Source: an uncultured virus (IMG/VR IMGVR_UViG_3300035208_003515) (Duplodnaviria; Heunggongvirae; Uroviricota; Caudoviricetes). Taken from it: a DNA stretch of 20,000 bases. The position numbers were made by a program, and so were the translations under genes. The DNA is taken from IMG/VR virus record IMGVR_UViG_3300035208_003515. One strand, given 5' to 3'. Positions 3,799 to 19,864 of this stretch are shown piece after piece. Numbering within the stretch: position 1 is the first letter of the stretch; every line of letters begins with the position of its first letter. Below the pieces are notes generated by a model, which worked only from the letters and a program-made list of their open reading frames with translations, had not been told where the DNA came from and ran no database searches.

Positions 3799-5604
3799 GC
3801 GATATTAAGCAGAAGCGCAAACGAAAGCGAATATTCATTATAGTTGGGTTGGCTCTATTTGCATGTGGGGCAGCAGTTGGTGGATATTTCTATTATCAGC
3901 ACCAACAAGAGAACAAAATACCTGAAATTCCTCTAAGTGAAGCTGTGCTGTTATCTAAGGCGCATGTATTTAGTGATATGAAGATAGGCGATAGTCAGAT
4001 TACTTTAACAGTGGCATCAGGATTTACTGATTGGGATTCAATAGCTACCGTAGATACTGATAAAAAGTCTGTCAATTTAAATACAAATAGTAAGGTTACT
4101 GTTGATGTAGGTAGTCTATCGTTAAATGACTTGCAGGATATAGGCTTTGTTGCACCGAAATCATATACTCACAACAGCCAATCAGAAGGTTTTAATTGGG
4201 GTTCACTTCCTGGTATTGTATTACCACTATTGTTTCTTGGTTGGTGGGTTTATATGGCTGTTGTTCTTCTCTGACATAATAGCAGGTGGATTTAATAAGT
4301 ATAAGAAGGATAAAACATCCATATTGTTCTCTGATATTGGTGGATTGTTAGATGCCAAAGAAAAACTGTTAGAGGCTTCACGGTTTATAACAGACAAGTC
4401 TTATTTCCTTAACGTAGGGGCAAAAGTCCCACGTGGAATATTATTAACCGGTGCGCCAGGAGTAGGTAAGACTATGCTTGCACGGGCAATGGCTACTGAG
4501 GCGGGTATAGGATTCTATTATGCTTCAGGAACAGAGTTTCATAGCTATTTTGTGGCGATGGCATCAAGGCGTGTCAAAAAGCTATTCAGATTGGCAAAAC
4601 AGCATCCAAGTATTGTGTTTATTGACGAGTTTGATTCGATAGGTATGGCTCGTAGTTTCAGAGGAACGGATATGTCTACTGATAACGAACATACTCTTAA
4701 TCAGCTACTTGCTGAAATGGATGGGTTTAAAAAAGATACTCAGGTTATCGTTATTGCAGCTACTAACCATCCCGAAGTGCTTGACCCTGCATTGTTAAGG
4801 CCAGGTAGATTCGATAGGCAGATAACCATATCGTTACCTACACTTGCTGAAAGAAGTGAGATAATCAAGATACATCAGAAGGGCAAACCTATAGCAGACG
4901 ATGTTGATATAGATGTTATAGCAAGGCAAACAGGCGGTTTAAGTGGTGCTGATTTGGCAGGAATGATGAATGAGGCAGCGTTGATAGCTGGACGACAGTG
5001 TAAAGATAAGATCAATATGGTTGATATCTCCAATGCCATAGACAATGTTACTGCTGGGAGTGAGCGTAAAGCACTTGTATTGACTGATGTTGATAAAAAG
5101 GTACTTGCTTATCATGAATCAGGCCATGCGCTTGTAGCCTCAATGTTCCCTGAGTGCGGGAAGGTACAGCGGATATCTATTTTGCCTCACGGAATGGCAG
5201 GTGGATTCACACGATTATCAGAAGATAAAGAGAAGTTGGTAATCACAAAGAAAATAGCAATGGAGAATATTTCAATATTGTTTGCCGGACGTGTTGCAGA
5301 GGAAGCAGTTACAGGTGATCTAAGTAGTGGCGCACAAAACGACATAATGAAAGCCAACCAAATAGCTACTGAAATGGTCGCTCATTATGGGATGGGAGCA
5401 AAGTTCGGACTGAGATATTATGATACATCGAGCAAAGAAGCTAATCCTATTATTAATGAAGATATAAAAAGCATCTTGGATGATTGCTACGTGACAGCAA
5501 AACAGGTTATCGAAGGCAACCAGGACAAGTTAAATAAGCTGGCAAGCAAACTCATTGAAGTGGAAGCCTTAAATGCTGATGAAGTAGAGGATTTGTTGAA
5601 ATGA
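3795..5604 (+). CDS. ftsH: FtsH-family ATP-dependent zinc metalloprotease split by a +1 frameshift near 4231-4240 (ORFs 3795-4274 and 4147-5604)
   Basis: The first ORF has TM1, an extracytoplasmic domain and the start of TM2. The second has the rest of TM2, Walker A GAPGVGKT, Walker B IVFIDE, SRH LDPALLRPGRFDR and the zinc motif HESGH. Confidence 0.88.
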
Positions 5605-6411: not shown

Positions 6412-6441
6412 TTGACAGTGACATATAACACATGGTATGCT
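6412..6441 (+). promoter_or_regulatory. Sigma70-type promoter of the tRNA array
   Basis: TTGACA (6412-6417), 18-nt spacer, extended -10 TGgTATGCT (6433-6441). Confidence 0.8.
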
Positions 6442-6450
6442 ACTAAAACA

Positions 6451-6591
6451 ATGCTCAAGCAAATAGGTACACAAACATCAACAAGTGAACGCCTTACTAA
6501 AACGGCGGTTAGATTTGCATTGCCATCTTATTTACACAATATTGATATATCACAGGATTGGCAATCGAATTTGAGGGTTTGTAAAGTCTAA
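6451..6591 (+). CDS. Putative 46-aa leader peptide (uORF) of the tRNA array
   Basis: MLKQIGTQTSTSERLTKTAVRFALPSYLHNIDISQDWQSNLRVCKV*. The ATG is ~3 nt after the predicted TSS with no SD (near-leaderless), and the last codons overlap the antiterminator arm. Confidence 0.6.
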   Translation: MLKQIGTQTSTSERLTKTAVRFALPSYLHNIDISQDWQSNLRVCKV

Positions 6592-6653
6592 GTACAAAGA
6601 CTAAGTAATAAGGATAACATGAACCCTCAAGGATAAAACCAAGAGGGTTTTTT
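6571..6653 (+). terminator. Attenuator: antiterminator 6571-6582/6619-6630 competing with intrinsic terminator 6622-6653
   Basis: AACCCTC (6622-6628) pairs either with GAGGGTT (6643-6649, followed by a T tract) or, as part of ATGAACCCTCAA, with upstream TTGAGGGTTTGT. Confidence 0.7.
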
Positions 6654-6658
6654 AGTGG

Positions 6659-6678: not shown

Positions 6679-6752
6679 GGCTGTGTCAGCTAATGGCAGG
6701 CTAGAAGTTTTTCACACTTCCAATCAGAGTTCGATCCTCTGTACAGCCACCA
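6679..6752 (+). tRNA. tRNA-Glu(TTC)
   Basis: Acceptor GGCTGTG/TACAGCC; anticodon arm GAAGT-TTTTCAC-ACTTC; encoded CCA. Confidence 0.88.
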
Positions 6753-6753
6753 C

Positions 6754-6828
6754 GGTCTATTGGTGTAGCGGTTTGCATGTTTGCTTGTCAAGCAATTGGT
6801 GATGGTTCAACTCCCTCATAGACCGCCA
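6754..6828 (+). tRNA. tRNA-Asp(GTC)
   Basis: GGTCTAT/ATAGACC; loop TTGTCAA; G73; CCA. Confidence 0.88.
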
Positions 6829-6853
6829 AAGAACTTTAATAATTTTATATTGT

Positions 6854-6943
6854 GGAGAGTTGGCAGAATATGGTAATTGCGGCGGTTTGCTAAACCGTTG
6901 ACCCTAAAAAGTCACACTGGTTCAAATCCAGTACTCTCCGCCA
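6854..6943 (+). tRNA. tRNA-Ser(GCT)
   Basis: GGAGAGT/ACTCTCC; loop TTGCTAA; long variable arm; G73; CCA. Confidence 0.93.
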
Positions 6944-6947
6944 ATGT

Positions 6948-7024
6948 GGTGGGAATAGTGTTAGTGATTAGCACGAGTGGTTGTGACCCACTTAGGACTG
7001 GTTTGAGTCCAGTTTCTCACCCCA
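6948..7024 (+). tRNA. tRNA-His(GTG)
   Basis: Encoded G-1 opposite C73; loop TTGTGAC; A19/U56 variant; CCA. Confidence 0.9.
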
Positions 7025-7028
7025 AAAT

Positions 7029-7105
7029 GGGGCTGTAGCTCAATTTGGGAGAGCGACTCGTTTGCACCGAGTAGGTTGGAGGTTCAATTCCTCTCAGTTC
7101 CACCA
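7029..7105 (+). tRNA. tRNA-Ala(TGC)
   Basis: GGGGCTG/CAGTTCC with G3:U70; loop TTTGCAC; CCA. Confidence 0.93.
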
Positions 7106-7106
7106 T

Positions 7107-7184
7107 GCCAGCGTAGCTCAGTCTGGTAGAGCGGTTGTTTTGTAAACAACGGGTCGCAGGTTCAAATCCATGCCGTTGGCTCCA
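7107..7184 (+). tRNA. tRNA-Thr(TGT)
   Basis: GCCAGCG/CGTTGGC; loop TTTGTAA; one bulged A in the T stem; CCA. Confidence 0.9.
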
Positions 7185-7240
7185 AAGTATTTTTGCGTTA
7201 GTAGCGTGAATATAGCACCTTAATATATGAATAGTTGTTT

Positions 7241-7317
7241 GCAAGAGTAGCTCAATTGGATAGAGTACGTGCTTGCCAAGTACGAGGTTGCGAGTTCGAT
7301 GCTCGTCTCTTGCTCCA
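7241..7317 (+). tRNA. tRNA-Gly(GCC)
   Basis: GCAAGAG/CTCTTGC; loop TTGCCAA; U73; CCA. Confidence 0.92.
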
Positions 7318-7318
7318 T

Positions 7319-7393
7319 TGAGGGTTCGTCTATAGGAAGGACACTGTGTGGCCGCACAGTAACGGTAGGTTCGAGTCCTATCACCCTCAGCCA
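7319..7393 (+). tRNA. Non-canonical tRNA-like RNA, anticodon undetermined
   Basis: Perfect acceptor TGAGGGT/ACCCTCA, G73-CCA, D arm and TTCGAGT T loop, but a 6-nt anticodon loop (TGGCCG) and a 6-bp T stem. Confidence 0.75.
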
Positions 7394-7394
7394 T

Positions 7395-7469
7395 ACTTCG
7401 GTAGTTCAATGGTAGAACACCTCCCTGTTAAGGAGATAGTTGAAGGTTCGAGTCCTTCCTGAAGTGCCA
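7395..7469 (+). tRNA. tRNA-Asn(GTT)
   Basis: ACTTCGG/CTGAAGT; loop CTGTTAA; G73; CCA. Confidence 0.92.
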
Positions 7470-7470
7470 T

Positions 7471-7546
7471 ACTCTCATCGTCTAGTGGTTCAGGATATCA
7501 CCCTCTCACGGTGAGGACATCGGTTCAAATCCGATTGGGAGTACCA
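7471..7546 (+). tRNA. tRNA-Glu(CTC)
   Basis: ACTCTCA/TGGGAGT; loop CTCTCAC; CCA. Confidence 0.92.
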
Positions 7547-7559
7547 TATTTGTCTTCAT

Positions 7560-7634
7560 AGGTCAGTCGTTCAGCGGCTAGGACATTTGCCTCCAAAGCA
7601 AAATACGAGGGTTCGAGTCCTTCTTGACCTGCCA
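7560..7634 (+). tRNA. tRNA-Trp(CCA)
   Basis: AGGTCAG/TTGACCT; loop CTCCAAA; G73; CCA. Confidence 0.92.
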
Positions 7635-7640
7635 AAATAC

Positions 7641-7715
7641 GCAATCGTAACTCAATGGCAGAGTGCCTGCCTTTTAAGCAGTACGTTGTGGGTTCGACTC
7701 CCACCGATTGCACCA
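7641..7715 (+). tRNA. tRNA-Lys(TTT)
   Basis: GCAATCG/CGATTGC; loop CTTTTAA; CCA. Confidence 0.93.
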
Positions 7716-7716
7716 A

Positions 7717-7792
7717 CGAAGCGAAGTTCAATTGGCAGAACATCGGTCTCTTAAACCGAAAGGTATGGGTTCAACTCCCATCGCTTCGACCA
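7717..7792 (+). tRNA. tRNA-Lys(CTT)
   Basis: CGAAGCG/CGCTTCG; loop CTCTTAA; A8; CCA. Confidence 0.92.
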
Positions 7793-7793
7793 T

Positions 7794-7868
7794 CAGAGCG
7801 AAGTGTTTATGGCAGCACACGTGCCCTGGGAGCACGAAGAGAGTGTTCGAATCACTCCGCTTTGACCA
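7794..7868 (+). tRNA. tRNA-Pro(TGG)
   Basis: CAGAGCG/CGCTTTG; loop CCTGGGA (C33); A8/U14; CCA. Confidence 0.88.
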
Positions 7869-7870
7869 AT

Positions 7871-7946
7871 GCCTCTTAAGTGTTTACGGATTACACATCT
7901 GCCCTCCAAGCAGAGGTAGAGGGTTCAAGTCCCTCAAGAGGCTCCA
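7871..7946 (+). tRNA. tRNA-Gly(TCC)
   Basis: GCCTCTT/AAGAGGC; loop CCTCCAA (C33); A8/U14; U73; CCA. Confidence 0.88.
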
Positions 7947-7947
7947 A

Positions 7948-8024
7948 AGGCGAGTAGCCCAATTGGCCGTGGCAACCGGCTTAGAACCGGAAATATGCGA
8001 GTTCGAATCTCGCCTCGCCTACCA
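7948..8024 (+). tRNA. tRNA-Leu(TAG), short variable loop
   Basis: AGGCGAG/CTCGCCT; loop CTTAGAA; A73; CCA. Confidence 0.88.
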
Positions 8025-8025
8025 T

Positions 8026-8100
8026 ACAGTCGTGGCTTGATAGGGAAGCAACTCTTTTACACGGAGTGATATGCAGGTTCGAATCCTGCCGACTGTACCA
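8026..8100 (+). tRNA. tRNA-Val(TAC)
   Basis: ACAGTCG/CGACTGT; loop TTTACAC; CCA. Confidence 0.9.
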
Positions 8101-8124
8101 AAAGTATATAAACCATTGTGTTGT

Positions 8125-8202
8125 GCTTGGGTAGCTCAGTCTGGTAGTAGCACTTCCCTGAAGAGGAAGGTGTCGTTGGTTCAATTCCAACTCCAAGCAC
8201 CA
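8125..8202 (+). tRNA. tRNA-Phe(GAA)
   Basis: GCTTGGG/TCCAAGC; loop CTGAAGA; CCA. Confidence 0.92.
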
Positions 8203-8203
8203 A

Positions 8204-8278
8204 GGCGATGTAGCAAAGTGATAATGCGGATGCCTGCAAAGCATCAGATCGGTGGTTTAAATCCACTCATCGCCTCCA
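8204..8278 (+). tRNA. tRNA-Cys(GCA)
   Basis: GGCGATG/CATCGCC; loop CTGCAAA; U73; A19/U56 variant; CCA. Confidence 0.9.
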
Positions 8279-8279
8279 T

Positions 8280-8354
8280 ACTGGGGTAGCTCAACGGTGG
8301 AGCAGGACTCTGATATAGTCAAGGTTGAAGGTTCGATTCCTTCTCCCAGTACCA
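8280..8354 (+). tRNA. tRNA-Ile(GAT)
   Basis: ACTGGGG/TCCCAGT; loop CTGATAT; CCA. Confidence 0.9.
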
Positions 8355-8359
8355 AATTT

Positions 8360-8433
8360 GCAGTGGTCGTTCAATGGTAGGATGCCAGTCTTATATACTG
8401 GAGATGGGAGTTCAATTCTCTCACACTGTACCA
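8360..8433 (+). tRNA. tRNA-Ile(TAT)
   Basis: GCAGTGG/ACACTGT (one mismatch); CCAGT-CTTATAT-ACTGG; CCA. Confidence 0.85.
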
Positions 8434-8436
8434 CTT

Positions 8437-8510
8437 AGAGCGTTAGTTCAGTGGGAGAACGTCCGTCTCATACGCGGAACACGATTGTCCGATTCAATCA
8501 CGCTCTACCA
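8437..8510 (+). tRNA. tRNA-Met(CAT), probably elongator
   Basis: AGAGCGT/ACGCTCT; loop CTCATAC; T loop TCCGATT; CCA. An Ile2 identity is not excluded. Confidence 0.8.
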
Positions 8511-8511
8511 T

Positions 8512-8589
8512 AGGTAAGTAGCCCAATTTGGCAGAGGCATTAGGTCGAGATCCTATTCAGTACGGGTTCAAATCCCGTCTTACCTACCA
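8512..8589 (+). tRNA. tRNA-Leu(GAG), short variable loop
   Basis: AGGTAAG/CTTACCT; loop TCGAGAT (C33); CCA. Confidence 0.85.
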
Positions 8590-8590
8590 C

Positions 8591-8666
8591 GGGCGAGTAG
8601 ACCAACTGGCAGAGTCGTTACGCTCAAACCGTAAAAGTACTGGTTCGAATCCAGTCTCGCTCACCA
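8591..8666 (+). tRNA. tRNA-Leu(CAA), short variable loop
   Basis: GGGCGAG/CTCGCTC; loop CTCAAAC; CCA. Confidence 0.88.
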
Positions 8667-8670
8667 ACAT

Positions 8671-8749
8671 GGCTCTGTAGCCCAACTGGTAGTATGGCAA
8701 CTGCCTTAAGAGCAGAAAAGTCTCAGTTCGAATCTGAGCAGAGCCACCA
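8671..8749 (+). tRNA. tRNA-Leu(TAA), short variable loop
   Basis: GGCTCTG/CAGAGCC; loop CTTAAGA; CCA. Confidence 0.88.
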
Positions 8750-8760
8750 TTTATCTTTAT

Positions 8761-8835
8761 ACGCTCGTAACCTAGTGGAAAGGTAGCTACCTTCTAAGTA
8801 GCCAAACGTGGGTTCGAGTCCCACCGAGCGTACCA
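8761..8835 (+). tRNA. tRNA-Arg(TCT)
   Basis: ACGCTCG/CGAGCGT; loop CTTCTAA; A20; CCA. Confidence 0.92.
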
Positions 8836-8838
8836 CAT

Positions 8839-8915
8839 TCGTCCGTAGTTCAATTGGATGAACGTCTGTTTCCTAAACAGAATGTATATGGGTTCAAGTC
8901 CCATCGGGCGAACCA
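8839..8915 (+). tRNA. tRNA-Arg(CCT)
   Basis: TCGTCCG/CGGGCGA; loop TTCCTAA; A20; CCA. Confidence 0.9.
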
Positions 8916-8916
8916 T

Positions 8917-9007
8917 CGGCGGGTGTGCTTAGTGGCGATAGCGATGGTCTGTAGAACCATTACCCACGTGGTAAACACCGCAGGTTCGACTCCTGCTCCG
9001 CCGACCA
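8917..9007 (+). tRNA. tRNA-Tyr(GTA) with C1:G72
   Basis: CGGCGGG/TCCGCCG; loop CTGTAGA; long variable arm; A73; CCA. Confidence 0.9.
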
Positions 9008-9010
9008 CTT

Positions 9011-9086
9011 ATCCCAGAAGCTCAAATGGAAGAGCGGATGTTTGCGAAACATCAGGGTATGGGTTCAATTCCCATCTGGGATACCA
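9011..9086 (+). tRNA. tRNA-Arg(GCG)
   Basis: ATCCCAG/CTGGGAT; loop TTGCGAA; A8; A20; CCA. Confidence 0.9.
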
Positions 9087-9097
9087 AGTAGATTAAT

Positions 9098-9184
9098 GGG
9101 TAGTTGGCAGAATGGCTAATGCGCTCGTCTCGAAAACGGGTGAACCGAAAGGTTTTGTGGGTTCGAATCCTACACTACCCGCCA
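9098..9184 (+). tRNA. tRNA-Ser(CGA)
   Basis: GGGTAGT/ACTACCC; loop CTCGAAA; long variable arm; G73; CCA. Confidence 0.93.
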
Positions 9185-9190
9185 AATTTT

Positions 9191-9266
9191 GTCCCCATAG
9201 CGCAATGAACAGAGCGTTACGCTTCGAACGTAAAGGTTGTAGGTTTGAGTCCTACTGGGGATACCA
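9191..9266 (+). tRNA. tRNA-Arg(TCG)
   Basis: GTCCCCA/TGGGGAT; loop CTTCGAA; A19/U56 variant; CCA. Confidence 0.88.
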
Positions 9267-9267
9267 C

Positions 9268-9356
9268 GGGAGGTTGCCAGAGTTCGGTAATGGCACAGTC
9301 TTGAAAACTGACGGAGCGGAAACGCTGCGAAGGTTCAAATCCTTCACCTCCCGCCA
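9268..9356 (+). tRNA. tRNA-Ser(TGA)
   Basis: GGGAGGT/ACCTCCC; loop CTTGAAA; long variable arm; G73; CCA. Confidence 0.93.
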
Positions 9357-9357
9357 T

Positions 9358-9432
9358 CGCAGACAGGGCAAACGGTTAAGCCACTGGCCTCATAAGCCTG
9401 GGGATTGGGTTCAACTCCCAAGTCTGCTACCA
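9358..9432 (+). tRNA. tRNA-Met(CAT), initiator-like
   Basis: C1xU72 mismatch, CGC start, loop CTCATAA, T loop TTCAACT. The anticodon stem CTGGC/GCCTG departs from the canonical three G:C pairs. Confidence 0.8.
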
Positions 9433-9433
9433 T

Positions 9434-9507
9434 TCTCCTGTCGTCTAATGGTCGGACAGCACCCTTTGAAGGTGAGAATGGGGGTTCGATTCCCTCTGGG
9501 AGAACCA
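9434..9507 (+). tRNA. tRNA-Gln(TTG)
   Basis: TCTCCTG/TGGGAGA (U1:A72); loop CTTTGAA; CCA. Confidence 0.9.
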
Positions 9508-9508
9508 T

Positions 9509-9584
9509 TCCCGAATCGTCTAACTGGTAGGACGTGATACTCTGAATATCAAAATGGGCGGTTCGAACCCACCTTCGGGAACCA
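9509..9584 (+). tRNA. tRNA-Gln(CTG)
   Basis: TCCCGAA/TTCGGGA (U1:A72); loop CTCTGAA; imperfect T stem; CCA. Confidence 0.88.
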
Positions 9585-9595
9585 AACGAATAAGA

Positions 9596-9627
9596 AGCCC
9601 CTGTTAGAAGTAGCAGGGGCTATTTTT
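9596..9627 (+). terminator. Intrinsic terminator of the tRNA array
   Basis: AGCCCCTGTTA-GAAG-TAGCAGGGGCT followed by ATTTTT. Confidence 0.85.
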
Positions 9628-9634
9628 ATAAGTA

Positions 9635-9663
9635 TTGACTAAATACTACTTAATAAGTAAAAT
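9635..9663 (+). promoter_or_regulatory. Sigma70-type promoter for the asnB-like operon
   Basis: TTGACT, 17 nt, TAAAAT; SD-like AAGGTGA at 9671-9677. Confidence 0.7.
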
Positions 9664-16000: not shown

Positions 16001-16131
16001 TGATAGACTATGAGGTAAACGGGTTGTTGTTTGTGTTGGCTTTGGGGGCTATGTTGACCGCTGCATTAATTATCGCAGTGTGTACCTGGCTCTACTATAG
16101 GAGACAGGATAAGAGGAAGGTAAGGAAATGA
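16000..16131 (+). CDS. 43-aa single-pass membrane protein (not in ORF track)
   Basis: MIDYEVNGLLFVLALGAMLTAALIIAVCTWLYYRRQDKRKVRK; TAATG and ATGA overlaps. Confidence 0.65.
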   Translation: MIDYEVNGLLFVLALGAMLTAALIIAVCTWLYYRRQDKRKVRK

Positions 16132-16367
16132 TCGCCACCATCTTACCCTGTGAAAAGTGTGGGCGGGTAGAAGTCACCGGCGACCTGAAAAGAATAGATG
16201 GCAAACCAAATGTCCGTTTATGCGCTCTTCACTTTGCAGAGGCCATCAGTTCCCAGACCTATCATCCCAATGTTGACCTGATCCGGCGGGAGATGAAGCG
16301 CTCACTTCTAAAACAATCCGAGTATCTTTCACCAAAAGGTATTGACTTAAAAGCACAAAGCGTATAA
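16128..16367 (+). CDS. Hypothetical zinc-finger-like protein
   Basis: CEKC...CALH; ATGA-coupled to the upstream ORF. Confidence 0.6.
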   Translation: MIATILPCEKCGRVEVTGDLKRIDGKPNVRLCALHFAEAISSQTYHPNVDLIRREMKRSLLKQSEYLSPKGIDLKAQSV

Positions 16368-16370
16368 GAT
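16342..16370 (+). promoter_or_regulatory. Sigma70-type promoter (unit 1)
   Basis: TTGACT, 17 nt, TAAGAT. Confidence 0.6.
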
Positions 16371-16386
16371 AACATAGTATCACTAC

Positions 16387-16434
16387 GAGGGTAAACGCTT
16401 CAGGGTTAGTCCGAAAAGGGTTTGCCCTCATTTT
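16387..16434 (+). terminator. Hairpin/terminator (end of operon and/or ~55-nt sRNA)
   Basis: GAGGGTAAAC (16387-16396) pairs with GTTTGCCCTC (16420-16429), then ATTTT. Confidence 0.6.
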
Positions 16435-16441
16435 ATAAGGC

Positions 16442-16470
16442 TTGACAATATATCACTGAATTAGTATTAT
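16442..16470 (+). promoter_or_regulatory. Sigma70-type promoter (unit 2)
   Basis: TTGACA, 17 nt, TATTAT. Confidence 0.8.
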
Positions 16471-16475
16471 GAATG

Positions 16476-16548
16476 TGCATCCACCTCCTTACTAAGAGGC
16501 TTCGTCCCAAAGATCGAAGGGTGGAAACGGGGCGAGGCCTCTCTTTTT
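16476..16548 (+). ncRNA. Candidate ~72-nt sRNA carrying an anti-Shine-Dalgarno sequence
   Basis: CACCTCCTTA, then a 14-bp stem AGAGGCTTCGTCCC/GGGGCGAGGCCTCT and a T tract; own promoter. Confidence 0.6.
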
Positions 16549-16562
16549 ATAATCATTAACTA

Positions 16563-16591
16563 TTGACAAGTGATTGAGTAACTGTTATAGT
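16563..16591 (+). promoter_or_regulatory. Sigma70-type promoter (unit 3)
   Basis: TTGACA, 17 nt, TATAGT with an extended TG. Confidence 0.82.
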
Positions 16592-16597
16592 ATAAAA

Positions 16598-16922
16598 GTA
16601 CCTTAACAAGTGAATATTCTGTTTAGTGGCAGAAAGGAATGCGGCTGAAAAGGAACGTATGCCGGAGTAAGCGCAGGGTGCGTAATTGTACGGGAAGTGC
16701 CCGAAAGTGGTAGCAGCCCTTCTGAGATTGACCGTAAGCCCCGATCAGGCATAGGCAAGTATCTCAGCTAAACAGATTATTTTGCCGCTCAGTAATGAGC
16801 AAGTACCGGTTCAATGGCAGGACTGGGGTGGAGCAGATAGCGTTGAAGCTCCAGTCCTAAAGTAGCCTCTCTAATTGTAGAAGTCGTTAAGCGTCATCCA
16901 AGATTAGAGGGGCTTTCTTTTT
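16598..16922 (+). ncRNA. Candidate structured non-coding RNA(s) of unknown family
   Basis: No ORF in the track. boxA-like leader, closing stem TCTGTTTAG/CTAAACAGA, several internal stems, a second domain at 16783-16858 and a terminator-like stem 16864-16914 with T tract. Confidence 0.65.
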
Positions 16923-16923
16923 A

Positions 16924-16952
16924 TTGACAAATACAGATGATTACTTTACTAT
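16924..16952 (+). promoter_or_regulatory. Sigma70-type promoter (unit 4)
   Basis: TTGACA, 17 nt, TACTAT. Confidence 0.8.
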
Positions 16953-16976
16953 GAAAGTAAATACATAGGAGATAAG

Positions 16977-17033
16977 ATGCCAAAGGCTAAGGGTAAGAAA
17001 GACGCACAGCGTAAAGCCCGCAAGGGTAAATAA
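16977..17033 (+). CDS. 18-aa highly basic micropeptide (not in ORF track)
   Basis: MPKAKGKKDAQRKARKGK; AGGAG SD at 16967-16971; own promoter and terminator. Confidence 0.65.
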   Translation: MPKAKGKKDAQRKARKGK

Positions 17034-17057
17034 CCATCCCTACCGGATAAAGGTAGC

Positions 17058-17088
17058 TCCCTCCAGGTTATGATCTGGGGGGATTTTT
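17058..17088 (+). terminator. Intrinsic terminator at the convergence of the + and - gene blocks
   Basis: TCCCTCCAGG-TTATGA-TCTGGGGGGA-TTTTT. Confidence 0.75.
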
Positions 17089-17090
17089 CT

Positions 17091-17279
17091 TTATTCGCTG
17101 TCGCGGAAGATTGTTGCAGCTAAACAGTAGTTGCGGATGTTTAAGGTAAGGCATTCGCAATACTGGCACTCGCAGCGCTCTATTAAGCCTTTCTTTTTAT
17201 CGGGTGTCCGGTTAGTACAGTGGAAGGGTGTTATGGATGCTATGAAACGGCGAAGTTTGTACCACATTGCTTTACACAC
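17091..17279 (-). CDS. Cys-rich hypothetical protein
   Basis: 62 aa with CECQYCEC; AGAGGAG SD upstream on the minus strand. Confidence 0.6.
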   Translation of the reverse strand: MCKAMWYKLRRFIASITPFHCTNRTPDKKKGLIERCECQYCECLTLNIRNYCLAATIFRDSE

Positions 17280-17310
17280 TCCTCTTTACAAATTTGTCTC
17301 TATCATCACA

Positions 17311-19558: not shown

Positions 19559-19864
19559 TTATCCCTCCGTCGCTTTTTCAAGAATAGCACGTATTNNNNN
19601 NNNNNTACGTAAGTTAATGGCCGCTGAGTTAATCAAAGGCAGAAGCTTATTAGCATCCGGGATGACGAATTTAATGTAGCTCTCATTTGGAATAGGTATT
19701 TCAATAGTATTAAACCGAAGTTTACAAGATAGGCACTCCCTTCTCCTGCGTACAGTATTAGTCTGTGAATGCCAGCGGGAGTCAGTTACCCGGCTTGTTC
19801 GGTTACATTTGCAAGTAGGGCAATAAAACCGGGAGCTCGTATCCTTGCTGTTATATCTACTCAC
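19559..19864 (-). CDS. NrdR-like zinc-ribbon protein lacking the ATP-cone (contains assembly gap)
   Basis: CPTC...SRVTDSR......VRRRRECLSC..RF.T.E matches the NrdR N-terminus. Confidence 0.75.
   Translation of the reverse strand: MSRYNSKDTSSRFYCPTCKCNRTSRVTDSRWHSQTNTVRRRRECLSCKLRFNTIEIPIPNESYIKFVIPDANKLLPLINSAAINLRXXXXIRAILEKATEG
19596..19605. other. Assembly gap (10 N)
   Basis: Run of ten N. Confidence 0.99.

Follow-up and report, generated by a model that had tools for sequence, protein, structure and literature searches.

Results

Genomic context of the locus

The locus described here lies in a 20-kb window, a stretch of metagenomic DNA considered as one strand, which carries an array of 34 tRNA genes at 6679-9584 as called by ARAGORN. 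Rfam matched 32 tRNAs at 6679-9581, one of them not called by ARAGORN, and the total for this window of a phage-like genome is 34-35 tRNA genes. One ARAGORN call, at 7319-7393 and directly after a tRNA-Gly(gcc) gene, has a four-base anticodon (ggcc) to which no amino acid was assigned, and it falls below the gathering score of the Rfam tRNA model. The other genes of the window encode glycosyltransferases, an FtsH-like AAA protease, an asparagine synthase, a methyltransferase, and a nucleotide-sugar epimerase, and many open reading frames (ORFs) have no family assignment. The FtsH-like protein (4147-5604) possesses an AAA domain and a peptidase M41 domain and matches phrog_30773 (E 6e-121). Its gene, which has TTG as start codon, shares 128 nt with the 159-codon ORF before it, and the Pfam matches of the protein begin only at residue 89; translation may in fact start at a later codon, or there may be a link between the two frames. 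Elsewhere in the window, a run of 10 N (19596-19605) breaks a minus-strand ORF of 101 codons; the NrdR zinc ribbon (PF22811, E 4.6e-12) is matched at its N-terminus.

The owner of the window is most likely a large phage, because there are PHROG hits and because one neighboring protein has a relative in IMG/VR (47% identity). Since the 20-kb window contains no hallmark virion gene, phage ownership stays a likelihood. T4-type marker genes were likewise absent from the 20 kb, and a search of 16 neighboring ORFs with PADLOC and NCBIfam returned nothing informative. The stretch was found in public sequencing runs of groundwater, landfill, and leachate metagenomes (12 rows from 6 studies), and no RNA run was listed among these 12 rows. 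Two of the 12 rows contain at least half of the sampled words, one of them perhaps being the source itself.

Genes are arranged in a plus-strand block that extends up to 16367 and a minus-strand block that begins at about 17300. The GC skew is +0.14 in 16001-17000, as in the upstream plus-strand coding blocks, and is negative past 17000; its value in 16001-17000 fits plus-strand transcription of the unit that is the subject of this report. DnaA boxes, sought as a sign of a replication origin, were not enriched (4 observed vs 6.5 expected).

Organization of the four mini-units

Four plus-strand mini-units, here called U1 to U4, lie between the plus- and minus-strand gene blocks. In each of them a sigma-70-type promoter precedes a predicted short RNA, which ends in a hairpin and T-run, and U1, U2, and U4 share the promoter-to-terminator build of U3, the third of the four. 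The U1 promoter lies at 16342-16370. U2 spans 16442-16550, with a promoter at 16442-16470 that matches 11 of the 12 consensus positions and a terminator at 16529-16541. U4 (16924-17083) possesses a promoter at 16924-16952 (10/12), an 18-codon Lys/Arg-rich ORF at 16977-17033 behind an AGGAG sequence, and a terminator at 17058-17083. The product of this ORF reads MPKAKGKKDAQRKARKGK, and the terminator that follows it is strong.

U3 spans 16563-16922. Its promoter, TTGACA-17-TATAGT at 16563-16591, matches the consensus at 11 of 12 positions and carries a TG before the -10 box (TGtTATAGT, an extended -10). Transcription would start near 16598. Promoters of this quality (11/12) occur four times in the 20-kb window, compared with 0.67 expected from 100 shuffles, in agreement with the preliminary description of the locus, which had assigned the RNA a consensus promoter of its own. 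Two of these four promoters fall within the 800-nt ORF-free stretch, where they drive U2 and U3. No promoter or terminator signals were found on the minus strand of the U3 stretch, and composition favors the plus strand of U3.

The U3 leader (16598-16612) contains CCTTAACAA, which had been described as boxA-like. It is followed by the 5' arm of a closing helix, P1 (16613-16626, AATATTCTGTTTAG), which pairs with a 3' arm at 16768-16781 (CTAAACAGATTATT). Between the two arms lie a purine-rich inner domain of 95 nt (16627-16721), comprising the joining region J1/2, the stems P2 and P3, and a CGGG/CCCG hairpin (16691-16703), and the P4 hairpin (16722-16767), in which CTGAGAT and ATCTCAG form 7 pairs around an imperfect inner stem. 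Downstream of P1 is a spacer (16782-16863) with two predicted hairpins (16787-16800 and 16819-16858) and then the terminator (16864-16922), a long hairpin (16864-16912) with a 13-pair stem that is followed by CTTTCTTTTTAT, the T-run extending to 16922. A simple terminator scan missed this structure because its loop limit was 8. A weak CopA-like match at 16830-16921 (26 bits vs a gathering score of 60) is due only to the shape of the terminator hairpin.

The units are closely joined. The U2 terminator ends 22 nt before the U3 -35 box, and the hairpin and T-run of U3 abut the U4 -35 box. The junction between U2 and U3 reads '...CTCTTTTTAT..TATTGACAA', and that between U3 and U4 reads 'CTTTCTTTTTATTGACAA'.

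Several other features of the window touch on this organization. The U2 RNA would be about 75 nt long; its 5' end, CCACCUCCUUAC (GCAUCCACCUCCUUACUA), is predicted to be single-stranded and is followed by the long terminator hairpin. We take GCAUCCACCUCCUUACUA to resemble the anti-Shine-Dalgarno 3' end of 16S rRNA, and the U2 RNA could pair with Shine-Dalgarno (SD) sequences. Past the last tRNA gene, at 9596-9663, a strong terminator of 11 pairs and then ATTTTTAT stands within 14 nt of a promoter, TTGACT-17-TAAAAT, that precedes the asparagine synthase gene; this terminator-promoter junction has the same design as those between U2, U3, and U4. Just upstream of the first tRNA gene, at 6412-6655, a promoter (TTGACA-18-TATGCT with a preceding TG) and a terminator-like hairpin at about 6622-6653 form a possible further ORF-free unit of about 200 nt. 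It has the 10-mer AACAAGTGAA in common with the U3 leader (16605-16614) and CCTTACTAA in common with U2, each match alone being at chance level.

Coding capacity of U3

No plus-strand ORF of at least 30 aa overlaps 16598-16925, which confirms that the unit lacks an ORF as first described. The longest small plus-strand ORFs within U3 reach 27 aa at most, and none has a well-spaced SD sequence. The best of them is a 24-codon, Arg/Lys-rich frame at 16639-16713. A spurious 51-codon minus-strand ORF yielded no candidate when it was sought in the protein collection, and no trace of a broken ORF is visible in U3.

That U3 serves to express one or more very small proteins, such as the product of this 24-codon frame, is highly improbable. 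Several small frames do exist, and the neighboring U4 encodes an 18-codon basic peptide behind a good SD sequence. However, the sole SD-like purine run in U3 directly abuts the ATG of the 24-codon frame, leaving no spacer, the other frames have no SD sequence, and the 24-codon frame crosses a region that differs in the variant strain described below.

Searches for known RNA families and relatives

Rfam 15 covariance models were applied at the gathering score over the window and, at E<=10, to segments of 1 kb and 201 nt. No family reached the gathering score across the core, and the only matches in the window at that score were the 32 tRNAs. At E<=10, in both the 1-kb and the 201-nt searches, the core was overlapped only by noise (mir-1205, 13.4 bits; SNORD15, 8.6 bits), and no riboswitch, antitermination, or ribozyme family matched. 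ARAGORN called no tRNA or tmRNA near 16598-16925. These results bear out the earlier statement that the RNA corresponds to none of tRNA, tmRNA, RNase P, SRP, or 6S RNA. The suggestion that it is a ribozyme fares differently: nothing points to one, no ribozyme family being matched even weakly. As to the proposed association with a tRNA array, the array and U3 do lie in the same genome, but nothing else ties them together and they are 7 kb apart.

Relatives of U3 were sought in collections from which the window itself is absent, namely IMG/VR viral contigs, metagenome contigs, and genome contigs. Exact or degenerate pattern scans gave 0 matches in the IMG/VR contigs; the 5 matches in metagenome contigs were all unrelated on inspection, as were the 13 in genome contigs, which were mostly coding. 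Against phage and plasmid records, blastn and megablast gave no match, with only chance stretches of 22-28 nt at E<=10. Neighboring proteins were also used as search handles. One led to the single IMG/VR relative, whose contig ends before the region and, over its full length, has no match to the unit; two others had no relatives. Among the papers listed in a survey of literature on structured RNAs of huge phages or of tRNA clusters, none was relevant.

Comparison of related strains

Contigs from four public runs were aligned to 16100-17300 and resolved into three haplotypes. These contigs derive from a de Bruijn-graph assembly, whose joints have sides of 30 letters only. The first haplotype is that of the window, with 0 differences over U3 in runs X2 and X5 wherever covered.

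The second haplotype, a relative in run X3 (record 9), has 36 differences over 16108-16550, mostly in the 5' part of a 79-codon ORF, with 5 listed past 16238. Its departure from the window comes at 16550, directly behind the U2 terminator; of the 30 letters that follow, 23 agree with the U4 promoter and 14 with the U3 promoter by hand count. The X3 run has zero depth over 16551-16878. Because of this departure point, the U4-like letters, and the lack of depth, U3 appears to be missing from this related strain, the break falling at the repeated junctions of a T-run plus TATTGACAA. A related strain in X3 also has 7 differences in U4 over 16973-17033.

The third haplotype, found as a variant in run X2, parts from the window sequence at 16607/8, 16650, 16712, 16781, and 16864. 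It keeps 16608-16650 and 16712-16781, blocks that contain both P1 arms, J1/2, the P3 3' arm, and all of P4. Joints connect 16650 to 16712 and 16781 to 16864, and there are loose ends before 16607/16608. The leader up to 16607 is replaced by other sequence, and the 61 nt of the middle (16651-16711), which contain the 5' half of the proposed pseudoknot, the P2 3' arm, and the P3 5' arm, are diverged or replaced. In place of the 82-nt spacer the variant has about 190 other letters, by arithmetic on record 7 (355 letters), and its terminator (16864-16920) has 4 differences in 57. The right limit of the conserved blocks is the exact end of P1 (16781), and the left limit (16608) lies 5 nt outside P1. 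No other observation speaks as strongly for a discrete P1-clamped unit as these conserved blocks do; the alternation of 100% identity with more than 20% divergence, however, fits a recombination mosaic as well as selection on an RNA. In U2, the X2 variant diverges past 16493 yet keeps CCCAAAGAT and GGGTGG.

The pattern of conservation also bears on the idea that U3 is a mobile element of the MITE type, in which the P1 arms would be terminal inverted repeats and the presence of the conserved block elsewhere would reflect transposition. Inverted ends matching at 13 of 14 positions do bracket about 170 bp, and the block 16608-16781 is differently flanked on both sides in the X2 variant. Nevertheless, there is no second copy within the 20-kb window, no target-site duplication is visible at the ends, and the middle of the variant differs, which would be unexpected for a recently moved element. 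Moreover, the X2 variant locus keeps the homologous terminator, and it thus represents the same cassette diverged rather than a new insertion site. We consider transposition a very improbable origin for the block.

Predicted fold of the core RNA

The preliminary description had proposed a multibranch RNA closed by a stem, with several internal stems, a pseudoknot, and a boxA-like leader. All of the stems quoted there are present in the sequence at the coordinates given for them, and the closing stem is longer than described: P1 is a 14-nt helix with one mismatch (13/14), formed by 16613-16626 and 16768-16781. In the isolated core, pair probabilities are 0.64-0.99 for P1 and 0.63-0.99 for P4, and both helices occur in the minimum free energy (MFE) fold as well as in the centroid, the P4 3' arm directly abutting the P1 3' arm. 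The CGGG/CCCG hairpin has a pair probability of about 0.8. The internal stems are thus partly upheld, P4 and this hairpin being well predicted, whereas P2 (TGCG/CGCA), with a pair probability of only 0.01-0.02, is at chance.

Dinucleotide shuffles of the 174-nt core separate the helices in the same way. Of 300 shuffles, 4 contain a perfect stem of at least 9 pairs and 10 contain two stems of at least 7 pairs, as in P1 and P4. Three stems of at least 6 pairs, a count that includes the pseudoknot complement TATGCC/GGCATA, are found in 59 of 300, and eight stems of at least 5 pairs in 137 of 300. P1 is the only 14-nt inverted repeat with one mismatch in the window (loop 20-250), and the mean in shuffled windows is 0.83, with at least one in 34 of 60. 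The fold energy of the core gives z values of -0.17 (16598-16790), -0.93 (16616-16778), and -1.19 (16608-16781) relative to shuffles, so that as a whole the multibranch fold is no more stable than shuffled sequence. The whole U3 unit has a z value of -2.41 because of its 3' hairpins. For the minus strand of the core stretch, the fold is more favorable relative to shuffles of that strand (z -2.91).

The leader and the pseudoknot fared less well than the closing stem. With the E. coli boxA consensus, as it is generally known, and up to 3 mismatches allowed, the leader gave no match, and the pattern matched 10 times elsewhere in the window vs 8.4 expected. The letters of the pseudoknot are present at the chance level given above for three stems of 6 pairs, and in the MFE fold its 3' half is occupied by other pairs inside P4. 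We regard P1 and P4 as credible. We find no support for a multibranch, pseudoknotted fold, for a boxA leader, or for the idea of a ribozyme.

It is accordingly quite unlikely that U3 represents a new class of multibranch RNA, perhaps a ribozyme, in which a four-way junction is combined with a pseudoknot between a loop and an internal loop. Such a class would be in keeping with the lack of any Rfam family at E<=10, with the existence of every named stem, and with the good prediction of P1, P4, and the CGGG/CCCG hairpin. Against it stand the very low probability of P2, the frequency with which shuffles yield a 6-pair complement like the pseudoknot, the use of the pseudoknot 3' half within P4, and the failure of any ribozyme family to match even weakly. 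In addition, the X2 variant differs in the 61 nt that contain the pseudoknot 5' half, the P2 3' arm, and the P3 5' arm.

The order of promoter, P1-closed structured domain, terminator, and small ORF would also suit a cis-acting leader, in which the clamped domain senses a ligand or modifies the polymerase and gates read-through of 16864-16922 into the U4 ORF and beyond. With several predicted helices closed off by P1, purine-rich joining regions, and a length of 150-170 nt, the U3 core resembles riboswitch aptamers built on four-way junctions and other Rfam families. Unlike these, it has no family match at E<=10 (201 nt), and neither a regulated gene nor a competing terminator pairing was seen: when the full unit is folded to its MFE, the core and the terminator form separate structures. 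A promoter of its own precedes U4, the 82 nt that intervene between core and terminator have two hairpins of their own and are replaced in the X2 variant, and neither riboswitch nor antitermination families matched. A cis-acting role is, on balance, very unlikely.

Complementarity of the U3 RNA to the rest of the window was limited to chance-level matches. Among them, the P1 5' arm (ATTCTGTTTAG, 16616-16626) could pair without a mismatch with 11 nt in the anticodon arm of the phage tRNA-Arg(cct) (8873-8883), as if P1 were the anticodon stem of this tRNA with the loop swapped for 141 nt; chance explains this complementarity, the BLAST E-value being 1.2.

Discussion

The cassette described here is real. 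As a candidate small RNA, U3 is plausible, has one good helix, and is still unproven; it is not a demonstrated new structured RNA or ribozyme. The reading we prefer, with a confidence that stops a little short of an even chance, is that a large phage-like genome carries in U3 (16563-16922) a transcription unit that is accessory and complete in itself, and that its product is a non-coding RNA and not a protein.

The main competitor is an empty or decayed cassette, in which the promoter and terminator work as junctions, the interior is functionless, and the stems, apart from one fortuitous long inverted repeat, are chance. We judge this unlikely. The z values of the core (-0.17 to -1.19), the chance-level frequency of the 5- to 6-pair stems and of the pseudoknot, and the expectation of one 14-nt inverted repeat per window all agree with an interior that lacks function. 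The same can be said of the lack of a relative in any collection scanned and of the related strain that appears to be without the unit, which would hence be dispensable there. On the other side, the one long inverted repeat of the window sits exactly in a strongly promoted, ORF-free unit, its arms coincide with blocks that are unchanged in the X2 variant, P1 and P4 are jointly rare in shuffles (10/300), and there is no trace of a broken ORF.

If U3 does make a non-coding RNA, a sequence of events can be proposed from its signals. Host sigma-70 RNA polymerase would start near 16598 and stop at the hairpin and T-run of 16864-16922, yielding a primary transcript of about 320 nt. The 5' half of this transcript (16613-16781, 169 nt) would be clamped by the AU-rich P1 helix with its 13 of 14 pairs; P1 would stack directly on P4, and the 95-nt purine-rich domain would bulge out between them. 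The clamp may delimit a discrete, stable small RNA of about 170 nt, which a double-strand-specific RNase would perhaps trim out at the clamp. We infer that this RNA could act in trans on some target, as a regulator or a decoy, during infection. Recombination between strains at the repeated terminator-promoter junctions may bring the unit in, remove it, or exchange part of it, and U3 would be an early-type accessory unit that takes part in cassette swapping in the manner of the cassettes of T4-type phages.

Those cassettes, the promoter-early stem-loop (PeSL) cassettes of T4-type phages (Arbiol et al. 2010; Comeau et al. 2014), provide the closest framework for the arrangement seen here. As described, PeSLs are sigma-70 consensus promoters joined to stem-loop terminators, and they are concentrated in hyperplastic regions, where they mediate indels between close relatives (PMC2839356; PMC4122927). 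U3 agrees with the published description in having an intergenic sigma-70 consensus promoter joined to a stem-loop terminator in a variable region. Judged from the 30 letters beyond its departure point, the X3 strain appears to run from the U2/U3 junction straight to the U3/U4 junction. U3 departs from the description in other respects. PeSLs flank small ORFans with an SD sequence and a start codon, whereas U3 has no credible ORF; and the junction motif was seen a few times in one 20-kb window rather than as a genome-wide family, in a genome that is not shown to be T4-type. The best reading is that the junctions of U3 are PeSL-like and that U3 is a swappable accessory small-RNA cassette.

Stable phage RNAs that lie beside tRNA genes are known in T4, where the species 1 and species 2 RNAs (rnaC and rnaD) are made together with the tRNAs and released from the shared transcripts by tRNA-processing enzymes. 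As in T4, the genome considered here is that of a tRNA-rich phage, in all likelihood, with a candidate extra structured non-coding RNA, and the T4 RNAs are, as generally known, 100-150 nt long and of unknown function. Unlike these RNAs, U3 has its own promoter and terminator and lies 7 kb from the array. A second precedent is provided by the long closing helices around 16S and 23S rRNA, which bracket stable RNAs for excision by RNase III. In U3, too, an AU-rich helix of about 14 pairs flanks a predicted structured RNA just inside a promoter-proximal leader; in contrast to the rRNA helices, P1 is shorter than typical RNase III substrates, and the leader has no boxA.

A more ambitious proposal is that the 169-nt domain founds an undescribed class of phage RNA, consisting of a conserved P1-P4 'handle' and an exchangeable purine-rich inner domain that is swapped between strains. 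Such an RNA would be made early from its own promoter, its inner domain acting on some factor of the host or the phage as a sponge or decoy; the ribosome or a tRNA 3'-end would be possible targets, through SD-like and UGGN runs. We hold this proposal to be doubtful, and any claim that the RNA forms a new class would require homologues.

Should the RNA of U3 prove real, the very few RNAs known from large environmental phages that are neither tRNAs nor CRISPR RNAs would gain a further member. Its existence would also mean that swappable promoter-terminator cassettes, known for small ORFans, can carry pure RNA genes. The four mini-units together, one of which (U2) has an anti-Shine-Dalgarno-like free 5' end, suggest a small RNA-based module for host takeover.
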